From Chromatiales bacterium (GTDB lineage Bacteria > Pseudomonadota > Gammaproteobacteria > RBG-16-57-12): a DNA stretch of 64,000 bases. The notes beneath the pieces were generated by a model, which was not told the origin of the DNA, did no database searches, and saw nothing but the letters and a program-made list of their open reading frames with translations. The position numbers and the translations under genes were made by a program. The stretch spans positions 695 to 64,694 of the forward strand of contig JALSJH010000060.1 of the NCBI GenBank assembly GCA_026989455.1, read 5' to 3'. Shown here piece after piece: positions 19,625 to 56,285 of the stretch; the first letter of the stretch is position 1; the number at the start of each line of letters is the position of its first letter.

Positions 19625-19657
19625 TATCCAACCCGCAGTAAATTTTGTTGATTCAAG

Positions 19658-20224: not shown

Positions 20225-20251
20225 GATCTTTTAGCCTTTCTTTAGTTACGT

Positions 20252-20644: not shown

Positions 20645-20654
20645 TTTCCTCCCC

Positions 20655-24277: not shown

Positions 24278-24349
24278 ACTCGCACCCTCTCTGCCACTGT
24301 GAAATAACCTGCCATGATTTTTATAGATCAACAGCAACTCAATCATCAA

Positions 24350-24844
24350 CTAGTCACTTTTAATATCAACCTGATGGCGACCTGAAGTCGTTTTTGGTAA
24401 CTCAATATGTAGTACACCTCGACTATATTTTGCCTTGGCTCGACGACCATCCACATTATCAGGTAGTGGAATAGCCCGCTCAAACACCCCGTAGGCACAT
24501 TCTGAAATATGGTACCCTCCTTGTTTACGCTGTTCTTGGTAGCGCTTTTCACCATATATCAACAACATATCATCGACGACACTGACATCAAAGTCTTTAC
24601 GCTCCATGCCCGGCGCTTCCAGCCGCACAATCACACTGTCACCATCGTCATAGAGTTCGGCCGCCAATAACCCCCAACCGACCCCCTTATGTACCGGAAC
24701 CAATAGACCATCTTTATCTTTTTTCTTTGAAGGCTTAAACCGAGTCAGCGCACCTGATGCACGATTTGCCAAGTGGTGCCAACCCTCAGCCACAGAACCC
24801 AAAAAACGGTTCAACCCACCGCGAATCTCTTCTAGAGTAGACAT
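24350..24844 (-). CDS. Small heat-shock protein (Hsp20/alpha-crystallin)
   Basis: 164 aa with an alpha-crystallin domain (VIVRLEAPGMERKDFDVSVVDDMLLIYGEKR...AKYSRGVLHIELPK). GGGAGGG SD. Confidence 0.9.
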   Translation of the reverse strand: MSTLEEIRGGLNRFLGSVAEGWHHLANRASGALTRFKPSKKKDKDGLLVPVHKGVGWGLLAAELYDDGDSVIVRLEAPGMERKDFDVSVVDDMLLIYGEKRYQEQRKQGGYHISECAYGVFERAIPLPDNVDGRRAKAKYSRGVLHIELPKTTSGRHQVDIKSD

Positions 24845-24914
24845 AATACCCTCCCATTTTCACTTAGTTTGAAACAATATTAATATCGGTGCCGTAACCG
24901 CACCCCAGCAAACG

Positions 24915-25439
24915 TCAATCAACCTTAATACGATGCCGCTGAGTCGGAGCCGCCTTGGGTAATCTCAGCTCCAGCACACCATCTTTGAAGCTTGCCTTGG
25001 CCTTTTTACTCTGCACTGATGCTGGCAAAATCACGGTACGGACAAACGAGCCCTGTGATATTTCGCGGCGGTGGTAATCCCCCTTCTCCTCTTTACGCTC
25101 CTGCCGAGTAGAGGCTTTGATGGTAACGCTATCTGCGGTCACAGAGAGATCCAGGTTTTTTTTGTCAACCCCTGGCAACTCAGCACGCACCACAATCTCA
25201 TTATCTCGCGCCACCACATCCACTTTTGGCTCATGCCCATCAAAAGGCGCTTCCAGATTTGCCCAAGCTGGCCACTCCTGACGCAGTGGCTGCATCCAAC
25301 CACGAGGAAAAAATCCCTCAAACATCCGATCCATCTCCTCAAATGGGCTGACTTCCCGCTGGTGCGGATGCTGAAGCTCCCCACCCTTTGCAGCCGACGA
25401 AAGTTCACCTCTATTTTTAATCTTCTCTTTTTTGGCCAT
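24915..25439 (-). CDS. Small heat-shock protein (Hsp20/alpha-crystallin)
   Basis: 174 aa from ATG 25439, with an AAGGAGA SD 8 nt upstream; the track's first codon is GTG at 25442. IVVRAELPGVDKKNLDLSVTADSVTIKAS...ASFKDGVLELRLPK. Confidence 0.9.
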   Translation of the reverse strand: MAKKEKIKNRGELSSAAKGGELQHPHQREVSPFEEMDRMFEGFFPRGWMQPLRQEWPAWANLEAPFDGHEPKVDVVARDNEIVVRAELPGVDKKNLDLSVTADSVTIKASTRQERKEEKGDYHRREISQGSFVRTVILPASVQSKKAKASFKDGVLELRLPKAAPTQRHRIKVD

Positions 25440-25800
25440 CACCCTTTCTCCTTATAAATATCTAACCATACAACAATCTGAATAATACCCCCTCCAAAAC
25501 TGCTTGGAGAGCATCAGACTCTCACAACAAGAAGTTATTTTCTGCTACTTAAGTTACACATACTTTGCTACTGGTCATGGGGGAAAAAGAAAAGGTGATT
25601 AGATGGAGGGTGCAAAAGGGTAAACCAAGCCAATATAGTCTGCTATTGCGGCTTAGGTGGTAGTGCACTTAGAGGTTGAGTCTGCCTCGCACCCAGATCA
25701 TGCAGGCGTTCGGTTTTACAGGGGAATTTACGAAGAGGCTCCTATCTGTAATTACGGGAGATGGGGGATTATCTTAAAATCAACGTAATTATTCAGCGAC

Positions 25801-27966
25801 TTAAAGCTGCCATCTATTTTCAAATGAGTAGGGCGCACCCAAACTAAAGTCCAACATCACCGAATGGCTCGATTCATTCAAACTCGTATCTAGGCGATCA
25901 ACAGTACGGTGTTGAGTCCAGGAAATACTAAAACGAGGGTTCACCCAGTCTAGTGATTTAATCGTGACGATATCCTGCAGTGTCCAAGAGGCACGTAGAC
26001 TTCCCCCGAAAATGGTATTGTCCTGAGAGTAATCACTGGCGCTATTTTCTTGCCCTGAAAACTGCAAATTCAAGATCACATTATCAGAAAATAACGGTAG
26101 GCTAAGCCCCAAATTCACCAATGATGCGACCGTCTCGATTTGTGTCGATGAGGTCTGCTGTGACAGATTTAAATTCATAGCTATTTTTTTGAGTTGATAG
26201 CTCAATCCAAAGGAGTGGTTTTCTGTTTCGCTGTCATTGTCACGATCAAGCTTATTGGTTAGCTCACCCAATTGCGACTGCCAAGACAGTGCAAACATCC
26301 CCATATTTCCACTCATACCCAACTGTATCTCTTGCCCCTGGTTGTCAACGCTATCATCAACGCTGGGCTCATCACTTGAGCGCTGTTGATTAATGCTGTA
26401 CCCAAGATTAAGGCTTGCCTTTGCCATTATGGGGAAATCAAACATCAGACCTGCCGTATCTGAGACCACCACGGCGCGGGTAATCTCTTTGTCAACATTA
26501 TCTTCCATTCTGGCCATATTCAAAGACCAACTCAGCTTGTGCCACTGACTTCCCAGTGAAGCGTTCACCCCTTGCCGGTCACCCGAGAAGTTGGGGTTAG
26601 TAATCGTCGCATAATCAGCACCATAGTGAAGATAAGCTAACTGCGTTGCCAAGCCTGAAAAATCTTTTGATAGACTAAGCTCATAGGCACTATCTGAAAC
26701 GGCTTCCACATTATCCAAGGTGTCATTATCAAAGTTTGTCTGCGCCATTCGAACACTCAGTCCCAAGCCGCCCCACTGCGATGAAAACTCCACCCCCACC
26801 GCATCACCCGCCTGTGGTGATGTCTGACTACTCCCAACACTCGCGGTCACCGGCTGAGGTAGTTCACCACTCACTGCCGTTAGTTGTAACGAGCTATTAC
26901 CGATCTCCACAAAGCTTTTTTCGACCGTCACACCATAGGTTTGTCTTTCGTCAAAAGAGATACCGCTGTTATTGCCATCCACCATGGCGGTACGTACATT
27001 AAATACAGACCCTTTCCAAGTTTGACCTTCGCTACTAGCGACAATGCCACGACGCGAAAAACTGGAAAGAACCAGTGGCATACCACTGATACTGACATCG
27101 CCAATATCCAACGTATGGTTTTTATAGGTATTGCGTAGAAGATAGCCCGCTGAAAGTGTCACTCTAGGCTCACCCTCTTGATCATAATTAATATTGGCAC
27201 TGGGTAACTCTGAGCGAAAATCACCATTCAGGTATTCGGTGTTAAGATTTAGGTTGCCTGTGAATACCCAGCCGCCCTGATCACCATCACTTTTCACCTG
27301 TCGACCACCCATGTTAATACCCGCATTACCTCGCAGCACCAACTCGCCATCTCTGGCCGCCTGCACTGCCTCTTCCTCAGCAAGATCAACAATGGCATCC
27401 ACCATCACCGTGCCCTGTCCATCGACTAAGGTGATTATTTGCGAACCTTCAAACAGGCTTGCAGATTCTGTAATGGTCCACTCGTCGCCATCACGCTGAA
27501 TCAGATCGGTGACATCAATATCGTCAATCAACAGCCGCGTATCATCCGCGACAACGCCCTGAATCAACAGGCGAATATCCTCACCCTCAGCACCACTATC
27601 AACGCGCTTTAAACTAATCACTGCGGGAGGTTCAATTCGTAGACGAGAAGGGTTGTATTCAGGATAATTGGCTGGCTCAGTACGCACGGTGCCATCTCTT
27701 AGCCTCAGTGCCACGTAATACTCAATGCCAGGAGTCTGCACCTGGTGCGCCGCCAAACCGGCAATCCATAGATAACCCTTGCGCTGCATGGGCAGTGCAA
27801 AAAATTGCCGACCACCCTCAATACGATAAAACAGCGTACCGGCTTGAATAGCCTCATCTTCCGTTTCATACAGTGTGACCGCTTGCCCGGAAAAGCTAGG
27901 CTCTTGCGCCTGTACCGATGCCCCAAAAATAGTTAAGCCGACTAACAAACAATGCAAATATCTCAT
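25801..27966 (-). CDS. Predicted outer-membrane beta-barrel protein with an approx. 200-aa N-terminal periplasmic beta-rich region; last gene of the giant-protein operon
   Basis: 721 aa with signal peptide MRYLHCLLVGLTIFGASVQA. From about residue 210 to the end there are many short alternating hydrophobic/polar strands separated by G/N/D/S-rich turns (LSLSKDF, LNLGYSINQ, FGLSYQLKK, LRASWTLQD, VMLDFSLG). ATGA overlap with the upstream stop. Confidence 0.65.
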   Translation of the reverse strand: MRYLHCLLVGLTIFGASVQAQEPSFSGQAVTLYETEDEAIQAGTLFYRIEGGRQFFALPMQRKGYLWIAGLAAHQVQTPGIEYYVALRLRDGTVRTEPANYPEYNPSRLRIEPPAVISLKRVDSGAEGEDIRLLIQGVVADDTRLLIDDIDVTDLIQRDGDEWTITESASLFEGSQIITLVDGQGTVMVDAIVDLAEEEAVQAARDGELVLRGNAGINMGGRQVKSDGDQGGWVFTGNLNLNTEYLNGDFRSELPSANINYDQEGEPRVTLSAGYLLRNTYKNHTLDIGDVSISGMPLVLSSFSRRGIVASSEGQTWKGSVFNVRTAMVDGNNSGISFDERQTYGVTVEKSFVEIGNSSLQLTAVSGELPQPVTASVGSSQTSPQAGDAVGVEFSSQWGGLGLSVRMAQTNFDNDTLDNVEAVSDSAYELSLSKDFSGLATQLAYLHYGADYATITNPNFSGDRQGVNASLGSQWHKLSWSLNMARMEDNVDKEITRAVVVSDTAGLMFDFPIMAKASLNLGYSINQQRSSDEPSVDDSVDNQGQEIQLGMSGNMGMFALSWQSQLGELTNKLDRDNDSETENHSFGLSYQLKKIAMNLNLSQQTSSTQIETVASLVNLGLSLPLFSDNVILNLQFSGQENSASDYSQDNTIFGGSLRASWTLQDIVTIKSLDWVNPRFSISWTQHRTVDRLDTSLNESSHSVMLDFSLGAPYSFENRWQL

Positions 27967-28997
27967 TGGTTTAAACCTTCAACATCAATCCCCTCGAAAG
28001 ACTTCATGCCTTCTAGGTTCAGGTTTTCGAACTCCACCTCCAGCTCCACACCAGAACCCAACGTTGCATCTAAAGTACGCAGTGCACCACCAGCCCCTTC
28101 ATTGGTCGGATTATCGGCAGCACTGCCGAGCGCACCATTGATCGCCGAGTTTCCTCTCAAAGAACCCGGATTAACCGTCACCCCCATACCAACAAGTTCA
28201 GCACTGACCCCGCTGCTGGTTTCATTACCTACGGTGACATCTGCACCTCCACAAATTATCGCGTTGTCATTAAACCGATCACTCAACACATACTCAGTCA
28301 CTGCCACAGCATTACTGCGCTGGCCTGCTTGTTGATAAAACAGGGAGACCCTGTTTTGCTGTACGTCACCATCACCCCAATCGAGTGGTTGAAAGCGGAG
28401 CAAAGTATCGGTGCGTTGATCAAACTCACTGATCTCAATCACATCACGATCATACTCAGGCGGTAATATCTCACCACATCGATCCATACTTTCATAAAAC
28501 ACCACCCGCACACGACCACTACAACCAAAGCCTTGGCCACGCAGTGTCAGCGTTACCGTGTCGTGTCGATTAAATTCAGACTGCGAAATCGAATCAATAC
28601 GAATGTTTTTTTGTTGAATCGATTCGAGCCGTTTAATGCGGTCACCATCAATCAACACCTGCCAAGCAGCAGGCAGGTAAGCGGCACTGCCGCAAGCCTC
28701 ACCAGACCATAAGCCCGGCCCCAATTCGATATCATAACGACCCTGCTGATCTGTCTTAGTGGTAATAAATTTATAGGGTGTATCGGGTTGCCAAAAGCGT
28801 ATCGTTACCCCAGCCGCTTGGTCACCCCCGACTTGGCGTACTTGCCCCGTCACAGTCACTGGGCTTTCACCCGGATCATAGGAGGTCAATTGATTGATCG
28901 CTCTCGCTGCATCAGAGTTGAGTTGAAGTGCCTGCGCCGCCATGGACAACGCCATAAAACAGCCGAGAGATAAACAGCCGATAAATAATCGCTTCAT
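27963..28997 (-). CDS. Secreted protein with CarboxypepD_reg-like and IPT/TIG-like beta-sandwich domains
   Basis: 344 aa from ATG 28997 (GTG 29000 is the alternative). Signal peptide MKRLFIGCLSLGCFMALSMAAQA. GQVRQVGGDQAAGVTIRFW...TKTDQQGRYDIELGPG is carboxypeptidase-regulatory-like, and DTVTLTLRGQGFGCSGRVRVVFYE is IPT-like. It overlaps both the upstream stop and the downstream start. Confidence 0.6.
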   Translation of the reverse strand: MKRLFIGCLSLGCFMALSMAAQALQLNSDAARAINQLTSYDPGESPVTVTGQVRQVGGDQAAGVTIRFWQPDTPYKFITTKTDQQGRYDIELGPGLWSGEACGSAAYLPAAWQVLIDGDRIKRLESIQQKNIRIDSISQSEFNRHDTVTLTLRGQGFGCSGRVRVVFYESMDRCGEILPPEYDRDVIEISEFDQRTDTLLRFQPLDWGDGDVQQNRVSLFYQQAGQRSNAVAVTEYVLSDRFNDNAIICGGADVTVGNETSSGVSAELVGMGVTVNPGSLRGNSAINGALGSAADNPTNEGAGGALRTLDATLGSGVELEVEFENLNLEGMKSFEGIDVEGLNQ

Positions 28998-29965
28998 CAC
29001 TTTGCCCTACCTGGGCGCAACACCCAACTGGATGGCTGCGATCGCTGCCCCACCTTAGACACCGCCAGCACTTGGTAGCGGTAGTGCCATTGTGGTTCAG
29101 CAGAGTAATCAACAAAGTGCATCTCATGCAGTACGCCGGAAATTACTTCAAACCCCTGCCCTTGATCGCGCATCACGATGACTCCTGACTGCTGGTCATC
29201 TGGCAATTGCCATTTTAAATAGGGCTGTTGAGTCTCGCTCACACTCAATTTCAAGTTAACGGGTGCAGCTATTTCACCATAACGTGGTTTGAACAACACC
29301 CCACGGGTCGCGGCACTTTCATTGCCATAAACATCCACCGCCGCAACGCGATAGCGGTAGGCCTGCCCCCCCACCGTGTCACTATCAACAAACGCTGTTT
29401 TTTCAATCAGGGTTCGATTTATTTTTGTAAAACCTTGTTCAGAGCCCACAGTAAGTCGATAGACCTGGTAACCAGCCAGATCGAGATCACGATTGGGCAA
29501 CCACTGCAAAGCCACCCCAAGCTCGCCATCGGCAACACGCAGTTGCAACGGCAAATGAGGCGCACGGCTATCGGGTAAGCGCATTGCTAATCGATTGGAC
29601 AGCGCCGATACATTGCCTGCCGCATCCACCGCTGCTAACTGATAAAAGTATTCAATTTCGGTGTTGGCGGTCTCTTTCACCTGGGTACTCATGTCACCCT
29701 TCTGTGCATCCACCAATGAGACAGTTTTTACAACACGAGGCGTTCCTTTGGCGCGTGAGCGGTAGACCCGATAAGCGGTCACATCGGTCGCTGGGCTGGC
29801 CTGCCATTGCAGTCGCAATTCACTTTTACTCAGTGCTTCCACTTGGTTTAATACCACCGGAGGGGGCGCTTCACGGTCGGCCTTAATATCCGCCACCTGT
29901 GGCTGCGCCAGCACCGCAGGCAGCCAGAAAAACAGCACACTACTGAGCATTATTTTTTTTATCAT
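28997..29965 (-). CDS. Secreted protein made of three fibronectin type III-like domains
   Basis: 322 aa with signal peptide MIKKIMLSSVLFFWLPAVLA. Three repeats each carry W-x-(n)-Y-x-V-Y-R and Y-x-Y-x-(V/L)-x-A-V-(D/S)-x-x-G-(N/Q)-x-S motifs: LQWQ..AYRVYRS..YFYQLAAVDAAGNVS; LQWL..GYQVYRL..YRYRVAAVDVYGNES; LKWQ..YRYQVLAVSKVGQRS. ATGA overlap with the giant gene stop. Confidence 0.75.
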   Translation of the reverse strand: MIKKIMLSSVLFFWLPAVLAQPQVADIKADREAPPPVVLNQVEALSKSELRLQWQASPATDVTAYRVYRSRAKGTPRVVKTVSLVDAQKGDMSTQVKETANTEIEYFYQLAAVDAAGNVSALSNRLAMRLPDSRAPHLPLQLRVADGELGVALQWLPNRDLDLAGYQVYRLTVGSEQGFTKINRTLIEKTAFVDSDTVGGQAYRYRVAAVDVYGNESAATRGVLFKPRYGEIAAPVNLKLSVSETQQPYLKWQLPDDQQSGVIVMRDQGQGFEVISGVLHEMHFVDYSAEPQWHYRYQVLAVSKVGQRSQPSSWVLRPGRAK

Positions 29966-32900
29966 TGCCCTGCCTCATACATCGGTAGATCGCACAGATC
30001 GATATTACAAATACGGATGTTTTGTGAAGCAGGAAGACCGCCCCACTCACCCGATTGATTAGATATGAATGGCACACCCACGTCACCATTAATGAAGGTT
30101 GCACCTAAGAACGGTGATACCGCTGCACTCTTGGCAGGAAATTCACCAAAACCAAACATCATTTGCTGACGCATTGCACCGTCATCAATCCCATTTCGCA
30201 ATACCAGCCACAACTCGGTTTTACTCACTGCACTCAAAGCGGTACAAACAGCATTATTCAGCACTGTTTCCCCGGCATTGTTCATAAACTCACTGGCCAT
30301 TACGAAAGGATTAAACTCCCCAGTTGGACAGGCCAGCTCTTTCTTAATAGCCGCCACCACCGGGCTTCCCAGCATAACTCTCATCTTCAACCCAAAAGCT
30401 GCACTCTGATCACTCACATCACCTTCAACAAAAGAAGCTACCTGAGCTTCCAACCCTTGTAGAGGTATCTTATGCCCCGCCAGCGTTAAGGTGATGTTGG
30501 GATTAACACACGCGCCATACGAAAACTGAACCGCATCATCGATCAGTTCGCCTCGACTTTCCTCCGTCATATCACCCGCCAATGTCACACCTAGCAAGCT
30601 ATTTAATAGCGGAAATTTGAGACTGCCGCTTAAACCCGTTCGGGTGCCGAAGCTCAATGTGGTATTAGTTTTATCGTAAAACGCACCAACGTTTACCGAG
30701 CCACTCACCGCCAACGACAGAGGAAATGGCATCACCCCCACTTCCAGCTGACCACACTGCACTACATCAACATTTTGAACGAGATCAAGTGCGTAGTTGG
30801 CCAAAGGTTGGTCAATAGTGGTAGGAAAGTCACTCACCAAACCACTAACCTGAACCTCACCCATGGTATTACTAAGAATCTCCAGCCCGGTTTTACCCTG
30901 ATAGGAGAGCGACAGGCCATCGCTTTCAGAGTGGCTAAAATAGGCTTCAAAATCAGTATTCACCCCACCAACATAACTACCTATGCAAGTGAAATCGCCC
31001 TCCTCACAGCCACTCGCTGCACTAAAGGCCAGTATCTGCCGCCCCCCTTCAGTTGCCTGTTGCAATAAACCCATATGACTCCCTATAAATGGAAGAGCCA
31101 GCTTTCCATACAACTCCAACATGAACGACTCTGTCTCTAGGGTGCTAAGGTTCCACTGCTGCTGCAAACCGCCACTGACTCCGCTAAAGCCCATACCATC
31201 GCCCGCCAGCTCATCAAAGAGTGAACGCTGTTGAATACGGCCAATCGCCGAGGGTGACTGATTCACCGCGATCAGCGAAGCAATACCATTGATGGCCAAG
31301 CGACCTAAATCCACCCCTGTCACCACCGCTTTTTGTGCGATTTCTGCACTGCCATTGACAACAGCTATCGCGTTATAGGCCATTGCATCTGCAAGCAGAC
31401 TGTCCATATCCCCCACATAGTCACTCGCTGGACTCAGTTGAGGTTGCCCCCCCACTATATCGATAAAGGGAACGGTTTCCAGATAGGCCCATTGCGTTTG
31501 TAATGGCATGGTTTTGCGCATCTCGGCAAACAAGGCAAGCAAGGAATAAGGAATCGCATAGGCCCGGTCAGCACCACGCCAAGTGTCGCCATCTGACAGG
31601 TCAGTTTCCAAAGCGTTACCCGAGACAATTCGCAGCAGCTTGGCGGTTGGATCGTTAGGGTTTTTGCTCATGGCAATTACGATTGCTTGGCTGGTATTGG
31701 GCACACCTTCAATCAAGCTTAATGCGTCGGAAACAACCTGAATTTCATCCATCCCGGCACTTTTTATTCCAAGACTGAGGAAGTCACTAATCCCCGACCC
31801 CTTACTTGGCTCGGCACTGCCGTTCCAACTAATGTTCATCACCTCACGCAGAGCACTCCCTTGAGGTAACAGTGTATTAATTGCACCAATGCCCATATTC
31901 CCCATCAGACTAACGGAAGCAAAAGTCGCCCCTTTGCTTAAATCTGTTTCGGCGATTTGGCGTAACAACGTGGCGACGGGAAGGTCGTCTTCCATGTCAG
32001 CTACGGTGACCGCATCACAATTGCTGGCATGAATCTCGGCAAACCAGAGATTACTTAAATCGGCACCCAGATGAGCCAGTACTTTAGGTGAGTGCTCTGT
32101 TTTGCCCAGCCAGCCCTTGTCATGACTAGTCAGTAGGCTTTTGATGGTCATAAAGGGAGTCATTGATAAGGCTGGAGGTAGGGCAATACCCAAGCCCTCA
32201 TTCACCCGACAATGCAGTGCCGCAATGCCATAACTCCCTAGGTAGGCATCTAACACTGTTTCTCCCTCTAACTGACCCGTGGCTGCTTGCTCTAGCAGGT
32301 TCCAGTTGTTATCAATAAAAGTGAGTTGCCAGTCACCCAAAGCATCGGCGGTATTCACCAAATCAGGCTGTAAACCTTGCTCACGGAAAAAGTCCAATAT
32401 CACCCCTTGAGTAAGGCGCGCAATGACGATGGGCAGATGCTCTCCTTCAGACACTGATAACTGTGAAGCCAGCATTTCACTACTCTCACGCATCATCGTA
32501 AATGCCACCGGTAGCGGCTGTGGTAGCGGTGTGATCATGTTATTAACCACAGGCAAACCTAGCAGGCGATTCCCCAGCCTCAAACCATCCACCGCCAGCT
32601 GGGTCTCTATCGATCCTGGCTCTTTAGCCACTGTTACGGTCATAGCCAGACCCTGTCCAATAATCGAAAACCACACCGTTTCTTCGGTCGTCTCGTTACT
32701 CGTTTGTAAATTGCCAGCCAGTGTTTCTAAAAAGTCGAGTGCGGTGAAATTTTCACCACTACTAATCAAGCTATCGATAAACACGCCACTCAGTTGCAGA
32801 CCACTGCTCAACAGGCACGCTTCGATACTCTCAGTGCAATCGAATTTTTCTCCTCCATTTAATAGGGGTTCGATCAGTTGACTTTTCAGTTCACTGGCCA

Positions 32901-35900: not shown

Positions 35901-38900
35901 GAGTGATTGCTGGCCGCTCATCCGGCAGGTAAAACACCTGATAGCGCTCCACTGGGGAGTAACTCACGGAAAATTCCATTGCCGTATTATCAAATTTAAT
36001 GGTGGTGGTGCGCACACCATCTGCACTCTCTTTACGATGAATTGTCAAGTCACTATCAGTACTTTGCATCACCTGCTGGCGGCTGCCATCACTCTGACTC
36101 ACGACCACACCACCGTCATCAAGTTGCGCTACGGTCAGGCTACTGGTAGCGGAACCGCTATTCGTGACAAGGTTGATATGTTCGACTGGCACACCACCGA
36201 CACTGGCCTGACCTGTTGCGATATCAATCGACCAGAGGTCATTGCTATTTTCTCCTGCCAAATTCAGTTGGCCATTTTCCAGACTCACACCATCCGGTAA
36301 GCTATTCTGGTCATTTTGTGCGGCTGCCAGTTGGCTACTGCTGAGTTGCAAGGTAAGAAGTTCGGTTGGGATCACCCCTGAAGGATCAGGAATAGCGACA
36401 CCTGGCGGGAGGGCCTCCGGCATAGCGTAAATTTCCCACTGGCCATTGCCAAAGGTGTGTAGTGCTTGCTGTTCGTTGGGTTGATAATTCCAAGTCTCGG
36501 TGCCTTGAATGACCACGCGGTGCATCAAACTATCTTCTGATTGAATGATCGTCGTTGCCAAATCCTGCAAAGAGTAGATACCCTCCTCTTCAGACATCCT
36601 TAAAAGAAGCGTTTCACTGCTGTCACCCGCCCTTAAAACAACAATACCACCGCTATAAGCCACTTCCCAAGTAGGATCCCAGCCCTGAACCGTGTCAGCT
36701 ATGCGGCCGAAATATTCAACCAACAAGTCGGGATCAAGCATATCCATCCCCACCGACCAAGTGGCTCGATCTCTTGGATCACTGAGTGACTGAACTTGGA
36801 TAAAAGCCCCTTCACTATTGTTTGTGTCGACAATGCAGCCGTGACCTGGAAATGGACATAGCCCACCATCAGCGTCACGGAAAACCTTGGTTACTACAAC
36901 ATCCCCCACGGATTGTGCCGCGATGCTCTCAGCCGTGTCTGACAGTGTCGGCATCTGATCTGCCATGTACACGGTATAGGGTGTATGTGTACCGTAACTC
37001 AGCGCACTAGTAACTTTTATCAGGGGTTGTCCAGCCTCCAGTGTCCCCATAATGAGATTCCCAGCCTCATCTTTATATTCCAATATAGAGGGTTCAGCAC
37101 TGGCAAACTGACCATTCCAAAATGACATAAACAAGTCTTGCTCTTTCTCCTCGTCTGTTCGCTTACGCCACTGGTGGAAGGAAAAAAATTGTTTGATACC
37201 ACCGCCGTATTCCTGATGTCCTTCTGGATAATATTGGCTAATGATGCCAAGCGTTAAGTCCACCTCACGCCAACTGCCATCGGCACGGGTCTGCCGTAAG
37301 CGAATGACATCGCCATTATCATCCACTGTTTTAACCAAACCAATCAGATTAAAATCAGCATGGGCGATGATTGATTTTGCTTTTTGTATGGCGGTTTTTC
37401 CGGCGGATGTCGGCTCTTGCTGCCCGGCCTCGTTGAGCAGTTTAATCAAACTGTCATCTAACACGACACTGAGATTATCTTGAGTAAAATCGATAATGGG
37501 TAAGGCACGGGCCAAGGCGGGAATCGCCTCTAACAAAGGCTGGCTTGCTGCGAACAGTATGGGCAACAGCTCAGGCAGTTGTTGCTGTACAACAGCGGCG
37601 ACATTTTGGCTATTCTCTGTATCCAACACAGCGAGCAACCCCATTAAGGCCATTAATTTTTCTAGCTCAGGACGTGCTGCAATACCGCTTGGATCACAGA
37701 CCTTAATATTATTGTAGAGCTGTTGTGAATGAGCCGTCATGACACTCATCGATGGCTTTTGCGCCCCAACTTCGCGCACCATTTTAAGCAGGTAGCCCAT
37801 ATTGGCCAGACCATATTGCTGGCACTGATTAAGCATGCTCAGATCTTGCACTTCATCGATCAAGGCCAGTGGCAGTTGCACCAGATCCACCTGACTGAAG
37901 TCATTGTCTGCTATTTGCGGCGCATGAACTAACAGTTGATCCAGCTCTTGCAGTAGCACGCGGTAGATATCCAGCAATTGCGCCGCTTGCGGTGAGCCGG
38001 TCTCAATCAACTGTTGAAACGCCAGTGGTATGGCTTGGGCGATGCGCAGCACTCGCTGTGCATCGGCAGTGGCAGCATCACTACTGAGGCTTTGATCGAG
38101 CTCGTAAAAGCTGAACTCTAATGCGTTTAATACCCCCTGAAGTTGAGTGATAATTTGTGAATCGACATCAATACCGACATCAATACCGAGTGACTGCAAG
38201 GCACTTAATGTTTGGTTTACCCCTTGCAGTGCCCAAGCAATTTGCCGCGCCTCGGTCTTCAACTGCCCCGCGAGAGGCTCTAACGTATGTGCCGCAATGC
38301 CCAGCATGGCTTGCACACTGGCAGGCAAGGCCAAACCGGTATTACCGCAGTGGCTATTCGAAAAATCGCCTTGCGCGAACTCATTGATGAGGGTCTGTAG
38401 ATAGCGAACCCCGATGGCTTCTGTGCGGCCCGACGGCACGTTTTGCAACGCCGAGACGGTTAAACCCAGCATCGGTTTGATCTGCGCTGTCTGGATCGGC
38501 AAACCGGCTTGTGTGAACAGGGGTTGCAAGCTGTCGGCTTGTTGGCACATCACCCCCACTAGATCAGCCACCGCATCGCCTAGGCGACGGGGGTTGATAG
38601 TGCCGCCCTGATTTAACTCTTTCACTAAGTTTAAGGATTCGTCGGCCAAACTCACCGCCAGCGAGGCGAGGCGTTTCTCATGCCCTTCGGGAATGATGGT
38701 TTCCACCGCATGAGCGGCATCGACCGCACGCTGTGAGATATTGACGACATCCTGATATGAAAGCCGCCAGTTTTGGTCCACTAAAGTACGCGCGGCACCC
38801 ACCACCACATGGGCGGTTGCCAGCCCGGCATCGGTCAGGTCATCAATAGAGACTGGCAGGGCTTGCAGCCCGGTTTGGCTGTAGGCTTGGTCAAGGTCCA

Positions 38901-41900
38901 CCCCTTGCAACAGGGGAATAGCGACATCAAGACTATGCAGGCCAATACTGGCGACCTCTTCAGGAGTCAGCTCATCGAAGTTGGCCACTGCGCCTAAGGC
39001 TCGCACCGGCAAGGAGGCTAAGTCGATGTAGAGCAGGGTCTCACCTGTACGGCACTCGGGCTTCTCTTGGCAGATTGCTTTGAGTAGATTCAGCGCCGAC
39101 TCGACAGTTATTAAGCCATTACCGACCGCATTGCGGATCTCCTCGGGACTAGGGAGACCACCAGCGGCAACTGCCATGCCCGTAGCCAGTGCAACCGATT
39201 GAACAAATACCGTCGCATCTACCGCCGTTTCAACCATCGCTTCGCCGGTACCTTCAACTCCCATGGCGCCAGCAAAACCGCCGCCTAACCGGGTAACCGT
39301 CTCCATGCCTCGTGCACCCGCCAGAACAGCTTTGAGTATATCGACCCCGGCACCCAAGCCCAGCCGCTCGTAACCCACATCACCCCTACCCGTGCTGCGC
39401 CACACAGCATAACCATCCTCACCTTGGATAATCTCTTGATCGGGGTGTATGCCCGCTTCGGCCAGTCCTTTAATCGATACCGCTTTGAGCAACGTCAGTT
39501 CAGCTTCACCCACAAAGGCTTTAAAGGCTTTTGGGTTTGTAACAGTCTCATCACCCGCAGAGACCTCTGCAACATAAATACTCAGTGCATCAGGATCTCG
39601 ACCATAGGTATTCACAAACTGTAAATCTGCCTTTACTTTAAGCGCATCATCATCGCCAAAACTGCCGTTTTCAATATTGATGCCCATGCGAATTTCTGGC
39701 ACCTGCGCGCCCAATGCGGTGTGGTGCACTTTCACCTGGCGGGGGCCGAAAATGCTGAAATTCACATCACCTTTGATCTCAATAAGGGGCTGGGCTGTGG
39801 CGATGTCATCTCTATCAGGTGGCTGCTGGTTGCCGGTATAGGGTAGAAAACGGATGGCATTAACCTCAAATGCTTGGCCGATAAACTGAATATCGCCAAC
39901 GGGGGTTATTTGGGTCTCTGATAGCTGGCCATTGGGGAGAATATAAGTGTCGATCTGAAAAGGGACTTCATTGTTTAGGGCGACAAATTCATCACCGCCA
40001 AAATCACTGTGTACAGGGAGAGAAAGCCCCATGCCGGTCAGCACTAGGCGCTGGTTTTCCGCATCAAACAGTAGGTTATTTGGGGTAGATCCCGGCCTAT
40101 ACAATCTCATGTCCGCTGCAAAAGATAGTTGCCTCGAATCACTCGCCTGCACAGGACTATGTAGTTTGGCCTGCCAATAGGCCAGCTCCCAGCTCATTTC
40201 TGATGGCATGGTCAGGCCATCTGCTGCAATATTCAGTTGGGCTTCTTGGTCAAAGTCACCTTGGAAGGGGAAGTTCTGTGCCACCGGGTAAGGCACATGG
40301 AGCTGCCCATTGGCAAAGGAGTCTGTTAATGCGGCCTCGGTAAATTTAAACCAGCGGGTATTCATGATGGTGGAGAAGCCTTGCACGACATAGTGGCGTT
40401 GGTCTTCTACCTCCACCCATTGGCCATCGATCCCCTGCCCGGTGACTAAAAAAGCACCACGATGAAAACCTGAAGGCCGATCAGCATGGGCACCATGCAA
40501 AGACCAGCCCTTGTTAAGCTCACCATCCTGCAACAACAAACCAGCGCGTTCCGTCATGGTTCTAGTCAGTGCTTCTCGCCACAGCGTCGCGGCATCATGC
40601 CCCATCTTGGCCAATGTTTCTGAGCTAGCATTGGGGAATTCATGGTAGCCCTCTTGAACCTCCTCGCCGATATACAAACGCGCTTGCCGCGGCTGATAAT
40701 TAAAGTTGCCAAAACGTAGGTTCATGCTGGAATCGATCAACGGCTCGGTCTTAAACAGATCCACGCCATTATTAGAGTCACGACGATGCAGATGTTGAAA
40801 TACCAACGTATCATTAGAGACAACCGCACTGTTTTCGGCGTTTGGCAGTTGCACATTACCGGCTAAATCAACACCACTCACTTTGGAGTTATCGAGGCCA
40901 AACTGGCCACTGGTTAACTGAAGAGTAAAGCCATAGGGCTGCAATAAACTGAGTCGCTCTGCGGGGGCTTGATTAAAAAAATCTGTCACCCGTTGCACGG
41001 GCTGCAGTTCGATATCATCACCACTTACCCCTTGGGGTGAATAGTTCAGCCAGTTCGCCCGACCATAGATAAATGCGGTGTTGGGGTGGGTGGTACTAAA
41101 CAGAGCATTGGCCGCACTCACCTTTAGCCGTAACAAGGCATCATGAAAACCGATCCCAACAAAGCCTTCCTGATCAGAATAGTCACTGTAATTAAGGTGT
41201 TGTGAGGCATCGATCACCAGCGTACTGCCTGCGAGGCGCAGGGCGAGATCATCTTGTTTAAGGCGAATATCGGGCCACTCATTATTAAACTCATAACGAG
41301 CAACGAACTCACCACCATTGAGGATTTCCAATTGCGGGAACTGAATTTTACCCGTATGTGCTACGTTGATAACCTCGGCTGCTTTTTTTCCAATAGAGGC
41401 CGTGGGGGTGACCACTCTTTGGCGGGTACTAAGCTCGGGTAATTGGTAGGCTAGGTCGATGGCTACACCCGTCACATTTTGTCCGAGCTGAACTCCCCCC
41501 GTATTAACTGGGTTGGCAACCCCAGCTGCTTTTTTTCCGATAACGGAGCCGTGGGTAATCTCCCTTTGGCGGATATTAAACCCGGGTAATTGGTAGGCTA
41601 AATCAGCGAACGCACCGGTAGTGTTAATCATCAAACTTTTGAGTTCAATCAGCTGCCCCTGAATATCCAGGGGGTACTGTTTGTCGCCCTCTAGGGTGAT
41701 CTGTCCACCGTCGAGTCGTGCGTTAAGCGGGTTGTTCGGCATACTCACGACAACATTATTCATCTGCATTTTTAGCGACTGTTCGCGACCATCACCCCGC
41801 CAAGTGGTTGTAGCCTGCGCCGTAAGCTCTGCTTGGCGTGGGGTATTGTTGTTAATGATGGCCGAACCTGAATCTGCCTGATTCATCTCCAACACAAAAC

Positions 41901-43656
41901 CGGCGGCATGCACATATTTGGGAAGGCCACCCGGCAGTGTGGCGTAAAGGTTAGCCGGATCACTGAGGTCATTAAGCGTAATGAGGTAATGCCCTGCGGT
42001 GGGTATTTTCCATTTTGGGCTTAATAGTGTCCCCTCATGGCCTGACTCAACCAGTACTTTACCAATGATGATCGGAGCGCCATTAGGTTGTCCATTGTGA
42101 TCCAAGGGGTGGGCGACAAATTTGAGCGGAAAGGTTGGACTTTGATTGATTCCCTTTCCCTTATCGTATTGCGGGTTACAGGTGGGATATTGAGCAAACC
42201 AACCCCCTAGACCTTGGTCTTTAACATAAGCGGCAAACTGCACCGTTTGTTTTTCATCAAACACAAACTGGCCCCGCTCTAGTAAGGGCTGGGGATTAAT
42301 CGGCACTACTCCCGTCGTCAACTGCCACGCGCCCATGAGACGTGCAAACAGTAACTCTTTGGGAGGTGAGCGATTTTCACATCTATTTTCGATGCCGAAC
42401 TGCGGCACAAAACCATCACTCCACTCATCAAAATCAAGGGCATCCAAGCGGGCTTTTGGCTCGACCAGTAGATTAATATTTGCCTGATCAATGGGCTTTA
42501 CGCCATCGAATAGCACAACCTGTAAGTTTTCTAGCAACGGTGTAGAGGATTGAGTTGCGGTCATTGGAATACGCAGCTCCCCCGCTGTACCCGACAATGT
42601 TTCGATAGGAAATCGCCCTATGCTCACTCCATCTTGACGCACCTCAGCGTAAACAGAGCGGCTGGTGGCGTTGCCACTGTTTTGCACTTTGATACTCAGT
42701 TCATAACCTTGGCCTGCTGCTAGCTCTGCTGTGCGCAGGAGTGACTTTGACTCAAATAAAAAGTCATCTTCTAGCAATTTTGTTTGGAGTTGACGAACGC
42801 TAGCTACTGCTGTGGGGCTGGTCTGACGAGAGCTGGTGGCTTGGATATCCTGAATGAAAACCCCTTGAGCTATTGCGCGACCAGAGACACTAAAGGTGCC
42901 CCAGCGGGACTGCAAAGGTTCGGCATTTTTATCGGTTGGATAAGCCAGCACCTGCCAGCGGTATTGACCTGCAGTCAGTGATTTTCGCTGCGTGGAGGTA
43001 AGTGTGTAAACATCACCCTTGCTGATCGCTTTGATGACTGTTTGATAACGCTTTTTTTCTATCTGGCGTTGCACTTCAATTTTGTATAACCGAAAGCTGG
43101 CATCACCCTGCCAGCGAAAATAAACCTTATTCGGGTTCACTTCAATATTAAGGGGAAGCTTCAGCTCTAGCGGTGCCCCAGTTGCTGTACTTTTAGCTCC
43201 ATCGGCAACAAAATAGATGATGGTCGGTATGTTCGCTAGAACGGGCCCTTCGGAATTAGATAGCTCTAGCGTGACCTCATGACGACCCGGCATAATCGTA
43301 GGGAGGTCTACCCCTTGTTGGTTCGAACGAATTTCAACCTCTTTGCCAAAACTTAGCATCTGACTGGTTTGAGCAATCACCTGACCATTCACTCGCCATC
43401 TCGCGGTGAGATTGCCATTACCCAGATATTTAAACCGCGCCTTGGCATACAACCCTTTGGTAGAAGGGGCAACAGTGATGCTGCTGCGCTCATTAGCAAA
43501 ACTGAGGGCTACGCGCTCAATATATACTCGGTCAGAACCGGTTGAGGGCGCTGACTGCGTACCTACAATGTCGATATTCACCTCAATGGCTGCCTGCACC
43601 GGCCCGGTACATACAACCATCAGCAAAAATAAACTTAAGGCTTTGGATAAAGTCAT
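29962..43656 (-). CDS. Giant (4,564-aa) Sec-exported protein of unknown family
   Basis: Uninterrupted 13.7-kb ORF. The track start at 43713 is a TTG. ATG 43656 gives a canonical signal peptide, MTLSKALSLFLLMVVCTGPVQA|AIE. N-terminal Ig/FN3/CARDB-like beta domains, long Leu/Ala/Glu/Gln-rich tracts and a beta-rich C-terminus. I found no RTX (GGxGxD), TPS (NPNL/NPNGI), cadherin/VCBS or YD repeats. Confidence 0.85.
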   Translation of the reverse strand: MTLSKALSLFLLMVVCTGPVQAAIEVNIDIVGTQSAPSTGSDRVYIERVALSFANERSSITVAPSTKGLYAKARFKYLGNGNLTARWRVNGQVIAQTSQMLSFGKEVEIRSNQQGVDLPTIMPGRHEVTLELSNSEGPVLANIPTIIYFVADGAKSTATGAPLELKLPLNIEVNPNKVYFRWQGDASFRLYKIEVQRQIEKKRYQTVIKAISKGDVYTLTSTQRKSLTAGQYRWQVLAYPTDKNAEPLQSRWGTFSVSGRAIAQGVFIQDIQATSSRQTSPTAVASVRQLQTKLLEDDFLFESKSLLRTAELAAGQGYELSIKVQNSGNATSRSVYAEVRQDGVSIGRFPIETLSGTAGELRIPMTATQSSTPLLENLQVVLFDGVKPIDQANINLLVEPKARLDALDFDEWSDGFVPQFGIENRCENRSPPKELLFARLMGAWQLTTGVVPINPQPLLERGQFVFDEKQTVQFAAYVKDQGLGGWFAQYPTCNPQYDKGKGINQSPTFPLKFVAHPLDHNGQPNGAPIIIGKVLVESGHEGTLLSPKWKIPTAGHYLITLNDLSDPANLYATLPGGLPKYVHAAGFVLEMNQADSGSAIINNNTPRQAELTAQATTTWRGDGREQSLKMQMNNVVVSMPNNPLNARLDGGQITLEGDKQYPLDIQGQLIELKSLMINTTGAFADLAYQLPGFNIRQREITHGSVIGKKAAGVANPVNTGGVQLGQNVTGVAIDLAYQLPELSTRQRVVTPTASIGKKAAEVINVAHTGKIQFPQLEILNGGEFVARYEFNNEWPDIRLKQDDLALRLAGSTLVIDASQHLNYSDYSDQEGFVGIGFHDALLRLKVSAANALFSTTHPNTAFIYGRANWLNYSPQGVSGDDIELQPVQRVTDFFNQAPAERLSLLQPYGFTLQLTSGQFGLDNSKVSGVDLAGNVQLPNAENSAVVSNDTLVFQHLHRRDSNNGVDLFKTEPLIDSSMNLRFGNFNYQPRQARLYIGEEVQEGYHEFPNASSETLAKMGHDAATLWREALTRTMTERAGLLLQDGELNKGWSLHGAHADRPSGFHRGAFLVTGQGIDGQWVEVEDQRHYVVQGFSTIMNTRWFKFTEAALTDSFANGQLHVPYPVAQNFPFQGDFDQEAQLNIAADGLTMPSEMSWELAYWQAKLHSPVQASDSRQLSFAADMRLYRPGSTPNNLLFDAENQRLVLTGMGLSLPVHSDFGGDEFVALNNEVPFQIDTYILPNGQLSETQITPVGDIQFIGQAFEVNAIRFLPYTGNQQPPDRDDIATAQPLIEIKGDVNFSIFGPRQVKVHHTALGAQVPEIRMGINIENGSFGDDDALKVKADLQFVNTYGRDPDALSIYVAEVSAGDETVTNPKAFKAFVGEAELTLLKAVSIKGLAEAGIHPDQEIIQGEDGYAVWRSTGRGDVGYERLGLGAGVDILKAVLAGARGMETVTRLGGGFAGAMGVEGTGEAMVETAVDATVFVQSVALATGMAVAAGGLPSPEEIRNAVGNGLITVESALNLLKAICQEKPECRTGETLLYIDLASLPVRALGAVANFDELTPEEVASIGLHSLDVAIPLLQGVDLDQAYSQTGLQALPVSIDDLTDAGLATAHVVVGAARTLVDQNWRLSYQDVVNISQRAVDAAHAVETIIPEGHEKRLASLAVSLADESLNLVKELNQGGTINPRRLGDAVADLVGVMCQQADSLQPLFTQAGLPIQTAQIKPMLGLTVSALQNVPSGRTEAIGVRYLQTLINEFAQGDFSNSHCGNTGLALPASVQAMLGIAAHTLEPLAGQLKTEARQIAWALQGVNQTLSALQSLGIDVGIDVDSQIITQLQGVLNALEFSFYELDQSLSSDAATADAQRVLRIAQAIPLAFQQLIETGSPQAAQLLDIYRVLLQELDQLLVHAPQIADNDFSQVDLVQLPLALIDEVQDLSMLNQCQQYGLANMGYLLKMVREVGAQKPSMSVMTAHSQQLYNNIKVCDPSGIAARPELEKLMALMGLLAVLDTENSQNVAAVVQQQLPELLPILFAASQPLLEAIPALARALPIIDFTQDNLSVVLDDSLIKLLNEAGQQEPTSAGKTAIQKAKSIIAHADFNLIGLVKTVDDNGDVIRLRQTRADGSWREVDLTLGIISQYYPEGHQEYGGGIKQFFSFHQWRKRTDEEKEQDLFMSFWNGQFASAEPSILEYKDEAGNLIMGTLEAGQPLIKVTSALSYGTHTPYTVYMADQMPTLSDTAESIAAQSVGDVVVTKVFRDADGGLCPFPGHGCIVDTNNSEGAFIQVQSLSDPRDRATWSVGMDMLDPDLLVEYFGRIADTVQGWDPTWEVAYSGGIVVLRAGDSSETLLLRMSEEEGIYSLQDLATTIIQSEDSLMHRVVIQGTETWNYQPNEQQALHTFGNGQWEIYAMPEALPPGVAIPDPSGVIPTELLTLQLSSSQLAAAQNDQNSLPDGVSLENGQLNLAGENSNDLWSIDIATGQASVGGVPVEHINLVTNSGSATSSLTVAQLDDGGVVVSQSDGSRQQVMQSTDSDLTIHRKESADGVRTTTIKFDNTAMEFSVSYSPVERYQVFYLPDERPAITPASGVNQALKHQMWLDIFELERQLKIEPSDYLLLQLDSLMVEARDLGLPINELNDQHKQIAAEALTSLMMAEFKRYDTALSPQAVAEWAANPSASPAGRIAHLQERGEALGLAVWRGSHNFRQHSSEMFYLDYYHHSQALSEVCTALEQCSEAALKSKVSILLKVIASLGEGTQLEETYSLMCEATDRAWNRIINPIINNENRVVIESDIQLALNLIALEGRLMCEDDSRVASVTSLGLRLAEGRGISLAQRVAAMDMEQRITAATPESAHDFDQNGNFDSNDLVAYYTNFYFRAGSFDEVALPASKDYPGWVRHLQTLSRLIDLVNSTAEQRHSDGQLVYYRDDQLVAYRDAVKTKLKAAWEAEWELRYNELSGGDFQELEKLKALASHFEKGRGLNAQVGESLIEVDNNSYLRAKIDGQWRNPLALMSDRQTDWLENVVWRTGRPEVEVAASLDSLVGQNRLIVYLKSTLPNEQLAGLRRLDARVIEELDEDLNALESAAARPDVDDILEHLFHPITEIREVLARVAQPQADARFRERIQRLLDSRVEWLQDHPDDLELEIKKIILITSLAQGDSEASGWESLSENANVMAALETALASANQAVNNDDGRDWSEFKAKAERLINIDSLMVRLGGEESTSMDDIIEGISPYITAQESLLDDAVNQDLETVYRLIKASLEMKNTAQGLGAEDMIFYNLGAEAGALEVKADQLSACAKDHDCTIEDVRDYLDLSASLHGLGGDADLSVLEEMISSSPATFPASIKGPHDLPKFSESLEGNNSAALREAIAQMLRAMGESFDMADATARQALRVVIGELRRLAAMKGTHVQLNAPLFNAADDLQAKIDNWLNDAAAQIASMVSGALDSIASIDLGDVSMAELEQFLLPHINGTPDLTRIEPGNKYRLAAEALAEAELDTNNEANLRLAYHLLSEIPDPAITAEGDYRLAGIGQLILFMAERGESMVTAVVAGVSNADFSGRPELQLLGSLLHLPGKDQPAQFLASELKSQLIEPLLNGGEKFDCTESIEACLLSSGLQLSGVFIDSLISSGENFTALDFLETLAGNLQTSNETTEETVWFSIIGQGLAMTVTVAKEPGSIETQLAVDGLRLGNRLLGLPVVNNMITPLPQPLPVAFTMMRESSEMLASQLSVSEGEHLPIVIARLTQGVILDFFREQGLQPDLVNTADALGDWQLTFIDNNWNLLEQAATGQLEGETVLDAYLGSYGIAALHCRVNEGLGIALPPALSMTPFMTIKSLLTSHDKGWLGKTEHSPKVLAHLGADLSNLWFAEIHASNCDAVTVADMEDDLPVATLLRQIAETDLSKGATFASVSLMGNMGIGAINTLLPQGSALREVMNISWNGSAEPSKGSGISDFLSLGIKSAGMDEIQVVSDALSLIEGVPNTSQAIVIAMSKNPNDPTAKLLRIVSGNALETDLSDGDTWRGADRAYAIPYSLLALFAEMRKTMPLQTQWAYLETVPFIDIVGGQPQLSPASDYVGDMDSLLADAMAYNAIAVVNGSAEIAQKAVVTGVDLGRLAINGIASLIAVNQSPSAIGRIQQRSLFDELAGDGMGFSGVSGGLQQQWNLSTLETESFMLELYGKLALPFIGSHMGLLQQATEGGRQILAFSAASGCEEGDFTCIGSYVGGVNTDFEAYFSHSESDGLSLSYQGKTGLEILSNTMGEVQVSGLVSDFPTTIDQPLANYALDLVQNVDVVQCGQLEVGVMPFPLSLAVSGSVNVGAFYDKTNTTLSFGTRTGLSGSLKFPLLNSLLGVTLAGDMTEESRGELIDDAVQFSYGACVNPNITLTLAGHKIPLQGLEAQVASFVEGDVSDQSAAFGLKMRVMLGSPVVAAIKKELACPTGEFNPFVMASEFMNNAGETVLNNAVCTALSAVSKTELWLVLRNGIDDGAMRQQMMFGFGEFPAKSAAVSPFLGATFINGDVGVPFISNQSGEWGGLPASQNIRICNIDLCDLPMYEAGQ
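41320..41615 (-). repeat. Tandem 147-nt (49-aa) internal duplication inside the giant gene
   Basis: The peptide units ..DLAYQLPGFNIRQREITHGSVIGKKAAGVANPVNTGG.. and ..DLAYQLPELSTRQRVVTPTASIGKKAAEVINVAHTGK.. lie exactly 147 nt apart (D codons at 41604 and 41457). The DNA aligns by eye (gctgctttttttcc..ccgtggg..ctttggcgg..gggtaattggtaggcta). Confidence 0.8.
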
Positions 43657-43863
43657 GTCGCTACACTCATCTGTAAAATTTCCATGGCTGAGCAACCCTG
43701 TTTTCAGGATCAATACAGCTCTGCCTTGTTATTTTCTCACTTCAATTTCAGGAGTGAATGCTAAACACTATTCAACTGCGGGGACATACCCAATCCTTGG
43801 TATTCCTTTACCCAGTGACCGAGATATATACTTCCACAATATTTGCTATGAGAGCTAATCACC

Positions 43864-54715: not shown

Positions 54716-54725
54716 AGGATGTTAA

Positions 54726-56273: not shown

Positions 56274-56285
56274 GATTATCGATTA

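Follow-up and report, generated by a model that had tools for sequence, protein, structure and literature searches.

How could a diderm bacterium handle an exported protein of 4,564 residues at its outer membrane? The question is raised by a 64,000-nucleotide stretch of contig JALSJH010000060.1 from the Chromatiales bacterium assembly GCA_026989455.1 (the window), in which the gene for such a giant protein is followed on the minus strand by genes for an FN3-domain protein, a protein of two predicted β-sandwiches and an outer-membrane β-barrel, with a gene for a PKD-domain lipoprotein on the plus strand. Comparison with other genomes indicates that the core of this module is the barrel together with a protein carrying an immunoglobulin (Ig)-like domain, which in the window heads the giant, and not the small β-sandwich proteins. 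The reading put forward here, by analogy with LptDE and MtrAB, is that the barrel and this partner domain may make up a complex that tethers or exports the giant; it is held tentatively, at somewhat less than an even chance.

A Constant Pair of Barrel and Partner Domain

The partner domain, of about 115 residues, spans approximately residues 41–165 of the giant (43162..43536, minus strand) and is marked by the motifs ERVxLxFxN, GNGxxxxxWxV(D/N)G and LPTxxPGxHxVTL. A hidden Markov model (HMM) of the domain has one occurrence in the window and, in other genomes, detects it in a protein encoded beside every barrel homologue examined, with E-values of 1e-35 to 1e-52. There, it takes the form of a lipoprotein of 147–166 residues, the N-terminus of other giants, or part of proteins of 354 or 544 residues. 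A barrel and a partner-domain protein are the constant pair in all five arrangement types, which represent about 13 distinct modules.

The domain shows weak similarity, below threshold, to the Pfam family BiPBP_C (8 of 11 members, best E 4e-4), and its profile has no match in the PDB. Comparison by hhalign found no relation to the N-terminal domains of the barrel or to the third protein of the module; for the N-terminal region of the PKD lipoprotein, the probability was 14%. A hint of its fold comes from an AlphaFold2 (AF2) model of giant residues 1–1200 with protein P0159, in which it is the only part of the giant with a predicted local distance difference test (pLDDT) score of about 60 and is modelled as all-β; the overall pLDDT of that model is 30.

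The module carriers are uncultured marine bacteria. The gene order giant, FN3 protein, protein of ~340–360 residues and barrel (725–730 residues) recurs at loci L001–L007, L015 and L016 at only 31–47% identity. Six distinct relatives, from gammaproteobacterial metagenome-assembled genomes (MAGs) or from unlabelled assemblies with the same type of module, have the order giant, FN3, ~350 residues, barrel and PKD lipoprotein. The original prediction of a self-contained module of four genes is borne out by this recurrence in other genomes as far as the four genes go, but falls short of the whole: because the PKD-domain lipoprotein accompanies the module, it has five genes in Gammaproteobacteria.

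In distant lineages, the barrels share 21–31% identity and the gene order is altered. These loci come from MAGs labelled Deltaproteobacteria, Krumholzibacteriia or “bacterium”, and from several metagenome contigs without a taxon label. At L008, L009, L010, L011–L013 and L017, the order is (BTAD/TPR regulator), barrel, lipoprotein of 147–166 residues and giant, and the giants that follow the small lipoprotein (L008–L013, L017) also begin with the partner domain. At L019, the barrel gene is followed directly by a giant with the domain, at L014 by the gene for the 544-residue protein, and at L024/L025 the order is 1,935-residue protein, 662-residue FN3 protein, barrel and 354-residue protein. The two small β-sandwich proteins, which were originally given a central part in handling the giant, are outside the core: L024 is the only distant arrangement with an FN3 protein, encoded ahead of the barrel, and the 344-residue protein was not found outside Gammaproteobacteria by tblastn.

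The Outer-Membrane Barrel

The barrel gene (25801..27966, minus strand) encodes 721 residues. An AF2 model built from an alignment of ten homologue clusters (mean pLDDT 72.7) has β-sandwich domains at residues 30–110 and 118–194 (30–194 corresponding to nucleotides 27385–27879), followed by 27–28 long antiparallel strands at residues 208–721 (nucleotides 25804–27345). By this model, the chain is likely to form one barrel of 26–28 strands. Ten barrel homologues share a C-terminal ...RWQ(L/F) end in their alignment, and RWQ(F/L)-type endings are typical of outer-membrane proteins. The model and the conserved C-terminus agree with the original assignment as an outer-membrane barrel. Its exclusion from the Omp85 family also stands, and TpsB features are lacking: there is no ShlB or POTRA_2 family match at E ≤ 0.1 and no POTRA domain, and the 50 best fold matches include no Omp85 protein, FhaC or TamA.

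No Pfam or NCBIfam family matches the barrel at E ≤ 0.1, and no sequence match was found in the PDB, either with the single sequence or with a profile. A word-indexed search returned only ten clusters at 90% identity, none with a name or a Pfam domain. A HMMER profile search of 1.84 billion representatives returned 878 proteins at E ≤ 1e-3 and 64 at E ≤ 1e-30. One group of relatives consists of barrel proteins of 640–850 residues. The other consists of surface-type proteins of 1,000–4,000 residues that have the first N-terminal domain alone, in up to 18 copies, and also hold PKD, β-helix and Big_7/GlgE_N-like segments. Ten relatives scanned against Pfam gave no family, and all those looked up were unnamed or “hypothetical protein” and came from uncultured organisms; a tblastn search of 72,556 plasmids with the barrel was without a match. 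Far from being an orphan, the barrel falls within a large superfamily of 878 representative clusters that has no annotation and that resembles MtrB and the ushers at the level of the fold.

A Putative Docking Complex

A Foldseek search of the PDB with the barrel model placed MtrB of the Mtr complex (6r2q_B) at the top (E 4.6e-10, template modelling (TM) scores 0.42/0.46), followed by the FimD/PapC ushers (E 5e-9 to 1e-7, TM 0.27–0.41) and then Deinococcus SlpA, with LptD at ranks 30 and 33 (E about 4e-6). MtrB, the ushers and, lower down, LptD are barrels that enclose or pass a folded protein, which supports a docking complex. The same reading is supported by the PKD lipoprotein of Gammaproteobacteria, since it occupies the slot that the small lipoprotein has in other lineages, just after the barrel gene.

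In the proposed mechanism, a barrel of the type assembled by the β-barrel assembly machinery (BAM), with ~26–28 strands and two periplasmic Ig-like domains, would pair with the partner domain at the N-terminus of the giant. The domain would dock in or at the barrel, as LptE does in LptD and MtrA in MtrB. Docking would tether the Sec-exported, disulfide-stabilised and highly acidic giant to the outer membrane, and as to topology, the large barrel lumen could pass part of it to the cell surface. The FN3, 344-residue and PKD proteins would be lineage-specific β-sandwich accessory subunits of the same assembly. As for a physiological role, the guess would be a regulated scaffold or adhesin, of the surface or the envelope, that diversifies quickly.

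LptD is a 26-strand barrel with a periplasmic N-terminal β domain, plugged by the small lipoprotein LptE. The module resembles it in having a very large barrel behind periplasmic β-sandwich domains and, in most of its lineages, a gene for a lipoprotein of ~150 residues right after the barrel gene. The likeness is architectural only, however, as neither the barrel nor the partner domain has an LptD, LptD_N or LptE family match. The putative plug is Ig-like and also heads a giant of 1,500 to >4,500 residues, and the module is accessory and patchy, whereas LptDE is essential and universal.

MtrAB(C) of Shewanella (6r2q), the best fold match of the barrel, has a barrel that sheathes a periplasmic partner and a lipoprotein partner outside. 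Partner-assisted barrel folding is reported for MtrA–MtrB in a preprint (bioRxiv 10.1101/2025.06.06.657845). The module might conceivably be a haem-free relative of MtrAB/PioAB, in which the barrel sheathes a periplasm-to-surface partner for electron or signal transfer. Besides the fold match, the modules at L008 and L010 lie directly downstream of MtrC-like multihaem cytochrome genes, and the lipoprotein beside the barrel recalls MtrC. However, the giant has no CXXCH haem-binding motif, and Pfam and NCBIfam show no cytochrome family in any module protein. The barrel matches neither the MtrB_PioB family nor, by sequence or profile, any PDB entry, and its partner is a giant that is not a cytochrome. 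Cytochrome genes are also absent beside the module in the window and at L001–L007, L012, L017 and L024. A relationship of this kind is considered very improbable.

Several points weigh against the docking complex as well. The barrel model has a predicted TM (pTM) score of 0.50, a moderate confidence, and the 721-residue protein may instead be a chain of two barrels, as described for GfcD (PMC11494523). The TM-scores of 0.42–0.46 to MtrB are modest and of a size like those for smaller porins. Profile comparison links the partner domain to neither LptE nor MtrA nor any plug protein, and co-occurrence alone does not show that it docks with the barrel. Finally, at the confidence of the AF2 model of giant residues 1–1200, neither the shape of the giant nor its passage through the barrel can be read.

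The Giant Protein

The giant protein is very acidic (net charge −247) and contains 29 cysteines, many of them in close i/i+6–7 pairs, which would suit an oxidising extracytoplasmic compartment. A family-specific WGGW...C(x4)C motif is found at its C-terminus, and the last 480 residues also contain a GFSGVSGG motif. The protein is probably rich in helices, as originally described, judging from its Leu/Ala/Glu-rich composition between residues ~1,300–2,100 and ~2,600–4,100.

No tandem repeats are present, and BLASTP self-comparison detected no internal repeats. RTX, NPNL/NPNG, CxEQ, HExxH and CXXCH motifs are absent, and a motif scan found neither GGxGxD nor a TAAG site. Scans against Pfam and NCBIfam gave nothing above threshold, the sole sub-threshold match being CARDB at residues 307–356, and homologues from six gammaproteobacterial and five distant loci yielded no Pfam family. 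There was no sequence match in the PDB, either with the single sequence or with a profile of the C-terminal half. A word-indexed search with the N-terminal 1,500 residues returned a single match, P0159; with the C-terminal 800 residues it returned none, although the giant itself is present in the collection searched. Only two further loci were gained from a metagenome scan with a C-terminal profile.

Two local features may be mentioned. A Gly/Ala-rich, hydrophobic stretch at residues ~1,430–1,500 is kept across phyla, from Gammaproteobacteria to the distant lineages. It falls within a longer Gly/Ala-rich, moderately hydrophobic and glycine-zipper-like segment at residues ~1,341–1,560 (38977–39636, minus strand; YERLGLGAGVD...LGGG...ALATGMAVAAGG). 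At residues ~686–790 (41287–41601, minus strand), a local duplication with a unit of ~38–50 residues can be seen by eye (AYQLPGFNIRQREITHGSVIGKKAAGVANPVNTGG and AYQLPELSTRQRVVTPTASIGKKAAEVINVAHTGK); it was not reported by the BLASTP self-comparison.

Comparison with Known Export Systems

In two-partner secretion (TPS), as in FHA/FhaC, a Sec-dependent giant exoprotein and its dedicated barrel are co-encoded and a conserved domain lies at the extreme N-terminus of the giant, which the module matches with its ~115 residues. The module barrel, however, is not an Omp85 protein, has no POTRA domain and has ~26–28 strands versus 16, while the giant lacks a TPS domain and NPNL/NPNG and is not a repetitive β-helix. 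The module may still be a new, two-partner-like secretion pathway, in which the barrel is a translocon that recognises the Ig-like domain of the giant and moves all 4,564 residues across the outer membrane. A dedicated barrel gene adjoins the giant exoprotein gene in every lineage, the putative recognition domain comes immediately behind the signal peptide, a position that it shares with the domain of TpsA, and the barrel is like the ushers that pass folded Ig-like subunits. On the other hand, the stand-alone lipoprotein form of the partner domain looks like a stable subunit or plug rather than a cargo, and no energy source or folding ratchet, such as a β-helix or repeats, is apparent. The giant is also non-repetitive and, by composition, probably helix-rich, unlike the known passengers that are translocated across the outer membrane. 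Transfer of the whole protein in this manner is the chief rival of the docking complex but is regarded as unlikely.

Ushers such as FimD and PapC pass folded Ig-like proteins. The chaperone–usher systems resemble the module in their large barrel with a periplasmic N-terminal domain and in the small secreted proteins of Ig/FN3 type that are co-encoded with it. They differ in that the module has no Usher, PapD or fimbrial family and no plug domain inserted in the barrel, and its partner is one giant chain rather than polymerising pilins.

The remaining systems are further removed. The Sec signal peptide of the giant and its lack of GGxGxD and repeats set it apart from the RTX and LapA-type adhesins of type 1 secretion systems (T1SS), and no ATP-binding cassette (ABC), membrane fusion protein or TolC genes were found among the larger open reading frames (ORFs) of the window that were scanned (~150 residues or more). 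Autotransporters (types 5a and 5e) have 12 strands on the passenger chain, whereas here there is a separate barrel gene and ~26–28 strands; no autotransporter or intimin-type family was found in the four proteins with Pfam and NCBIfam. The same scans gave no match to the C-terminal Por secretion tail of the type 9 secretion system (T9SS), nor to DUF560 (Slam, type 11 secretion system) or YjbH (GfcD/YjbH). Families of the TamA/TamB and AsmA-like kind, in which an Omp85 barrel is joined by a DUF490/AsmA β-taco protein with an N-terminal membrane anchor, are absent; the giant matches neither TamB nor AsmA, and its signal peptide is cleavable. The α2-macroglobulin systems are represented by no A2M family, no CxEQ in the giant and no pbpC nearby; the one connection is that the partner domain resembles BiPBP_C, below threshold.

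The family scans, motif scans and fold search accord with the original prediction that RTX, TPS, Omp85/POTRA, autotransporter and T9SS signatures are missing, and the giant and barrel match none of the characterised pairs, showing by sequence no defining feature of TPS, T1SS, TamAB or α2-macroglobulin systems. No description of such a system was found in the literature. The module is judged to fit no kind of system described so far, and in its working logic it would be most like the barrel-and-plug complexes.

Gene Organization

The ORFs and the public gene calls on the same contig agree on four consecutive minus-strand genes of 4,564, 322, 344 and 721 residues, as originally described. The giant gene extends over 29962..43656: the ORF has a mechanical TTG start at 43713, and the first in-frame ATG with a signal peptide is at 43656 (MTLSKALSLFLLMVVCTGPVQA, with the cleavage site before AIE). 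Relatives of 4,514–4,743 residues hold the same position in their modules, with complete homologues at L015 and L016 and on the contigs behind L002–L004. The FN3 protein gene is at 28997..29965, and the next gene, at 27963..29000, encodes 345 residues from a GTG or 344 from the ATG at 28997.

The stop/start overlaps claimed at all three junctions were read directly in the DNA. The giant and FN3 genes overlap by ATGA at 29962–29965 (CAATGA), the FN3 gene and the next by GTGA or TGATG at 28995–29000 (AAGTGATGAAG), and the latter and the barrel gene by ATGA at 27963–27966 (CCAATGAGA). Gene junctions in the relatives are equally tight or overlapping. Such overlaps suggest that translation of the four-gene run is coupled, and hence that the products may be made in fixed proportion.

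Each of the four products also begins with the Sec signal peptide that had been expected, consisting of an n-region, a hydrophobic core and a small-x-small cleavage site, which reading by eye places at VQA/A, VLA/Q, AQA/L and VQA/Q. Together with the paired cysteines of the giant, these signal peptides fit an extracytoplasmic location. A gene-calling artefact was considered and dismissed because the ORFs are conserved as proteins across phyla.

The giant and PKD lipoprotein genes diverge from an intergenic region of 207 bp (43657..43863), presumably a shared promoter region. No promoter-like site was found within it; the sole consensus match in 43500–44000, a number not above that in shuffled sequences, is at 43542–43569 on the plus strand, within the coding region of the giant. 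On the other side of the module, the 360-bp stretch 3′ of the barrel gene has one terminator-like site (25511–25490), which is not above chance expectation.

Putative Accessory Proteins

The original prediction described the 322-residue protein as having three FN3 domains. This label is partly backed: one FN3 domain scores above the threshold of Pfam (E 1.2e-8), and the sequence shows three W..Y.VYR units. Its relatives are 437–454 residues long. The 344-residue protein has four conserved cysteines, a variable Gly/Ala/Asn-rich tail and, in alignment, the motifs RFWQP, EACGS and GFGCxG. The CarboxypepD_reg part of its earlier label survives below threshold (17.4 bits versus 32.3), while the IPT part does not, IPT/TIG being undetected in the Pfam scan; its profile has no match in the PDB.

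The PKD lipoprotein gene (43864..46485, plus strand; 873 residues) is the fifth member of the module. Its product matches K319L-like_PKD (E 9e-34) and has a lipobox, LVLSG/C, at Cys23. Homologues of 878–1,187 residues share 40–50% identity, all with a lipobox. In L001–L007 and L016, the PKD protein gene is directly 3′ of the barrel gene, unlike in the window, where it is divergent from the giant gene; the exception is the close relative L015, whose retrieved sequence does not include the part upstream of the giant. Right after the PKD gene of the window, at 46591–47385 on the plus strand, is a gene for a 264-residue protein that ends in a PEP-CTERM sorting motif, with an E-value of 3.6e-4 that lies slightly above the cutoff of Pfam. 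The GTG-start form of this protein is missing from the public protein collection, where its start may be called differently.

The domains of these proteins bear on another possibility, namely that a nutrient, polysaccharide or lipid passes through the barrel as its substrate and that the giant is not a cargo but, with the β-sandwich proteins, binds or processes that substrate, at the surface or in the periplasm, in a manner similar to SusCD or GfcBCD/YjbFGH. PKD, FN3 and CarboxypepD_reg-like domains occur frequently among carbohydrate-active proteins and proteins that bind surfaces, and the N-terminal domain of the barrel recurs in the large PKD/β-helix surface proteins described above. A PEP-CTERM protein gene adjoins the module, and at L024 a TonB-dependent receptor and an ABC/TonB set are encoded downstream. 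These features are offset by the giant, which over its more than 4,000 residues shows no detectable catalytic or carbohydrate-binding family, whatever the lineage, by the absence of a YjbH/GfcD, TonB-dependent receptor Plug or Wza signature in the barrel, and by the lack of adjacent glycosyltransferase or export genes in the window. A substrate channel is considered improbable.

Divergence of the Module

Positions 51654–64000 of the window share 86.8% DNA identity with contigs of MAGs GCA_024278815.1 and GCA_021647245.1 (L021/L022/L023). The shared stretch contains pyrG, kdsA, eno, ftsB, ispD, ispF, truD, a two-component system and a GGDEF/EAL gene, and the enolase of GCA_024278815.1 is 99% identical to that of the window. 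Synteny ends at ~51654, where the relative continues with ion-channel and glycogen synthase genes, not with the cob genes and module of the window. GCA_024278815.1 carries its module (L002) at a different locus, with a barrel 41% and a giant 31% identical to those of the window. Within one genus, the modules thus differ by ~60–70% in sequence, versus 99% identity for enolase, the one housekeeping protein compared. It follows that a single genus holds strongly divergent versions of the module, which may be either paralogues or replacements by exchanged modules.

All of the contigs from distant lineages end inside the giant gene (L008, L010, L011, L012, L013, L017 and L019, at their 3′ ends), and at L001, the 5′ end of the contig also falls within it. 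These breaks suggest strain-level variation or hidden repeats. Together with the divergence within one genus, they would fit strain-level heterogeneity and divergent paralogous or exchanged modules, as would be expected for an exposed structure. The contrast between module and enolase within that genus points to strong diversifying pressure, of the kind expected where a structure faces phages, predators or neighbouring cells. The contig breaks and the divergence within one genus would also fit a surface-exposed, diversifying protein moved by a new secretion pathway.

Regulators and Neighboring Genes

Regulatory genes beside the module vary by lineage. A NarL-type response regulator and a seven-transmembrane (7-TM) sensor kinase are encoded next to it in L003, L004 and L006, and a hybrid kinase in L002 and L007. 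The former pair, a NarL/LuxR-type regulator and a 7-TM sensor histidine kinase of 621–633 residues, follows the PKD gene (L003 15172–17805, L004 14860–18359, L006 15800–18625). The regulator has 70–75% identity between these loci, far above the conservation of the module, and such a pair is missing in the window. In L008 (1518–9755) and L010 (574–5890), the genes before the barrel encode the MtrC-like multihaem cytochromes (~1,011 residues) and a BTAD/TPR regulator; of these, L017 has the BTAD regulator but not the cytochromes.

In the window, the module is followed after a 358-bp spacer by two tandem HSP20 genes and a DUF6781 gene (23615–25442, minus strand), and then by an ABC1/UbiB-type kinase gene (21920–23605), none of which is kept beside the module in other genomes. 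Next, at 17607–21793 on the minus strand, are genes for a cytochrome b561, an unknown 181-residue protein, a DUF1924 protein, a dihaem cytochrome c and an OmpR-type regulator with its sensor kinase. Positions 2620–10862 (minus strand) hold genes that are unrelated to the module: one for a P-type cation ATPase and a cluster for an Mrp/Mnh-type multisubunit cation/proton antiporter. An origin from a mobile element or phage was dismissed because no such genes flank the module.

Implications

The barrel superfamily and the partner domain might constitute an unrecognised pathway for exporting or anchoring very large, non-repetitive proteins in several phyla, and thus a new secretion “type” in which a barrel of 26–28 strands would recognise an N-terminal Ig-like domain and thread or display proteins of several thousand residues, although that is rather doubtful at present. 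In its more than 4,000 residues without a detectable relative of known fold, the giant represents a sizeable unexplored protein space. If the pairing of barrel and partner domain is functional, it would be a new kind of outer-membrane machine among the few routes by which the proteins of diderm bacteria reach the outer membrane or pass beyond it, and it would open a first way into a barrel superfamily whose representative clusters, hundreds in number, lack annotation.

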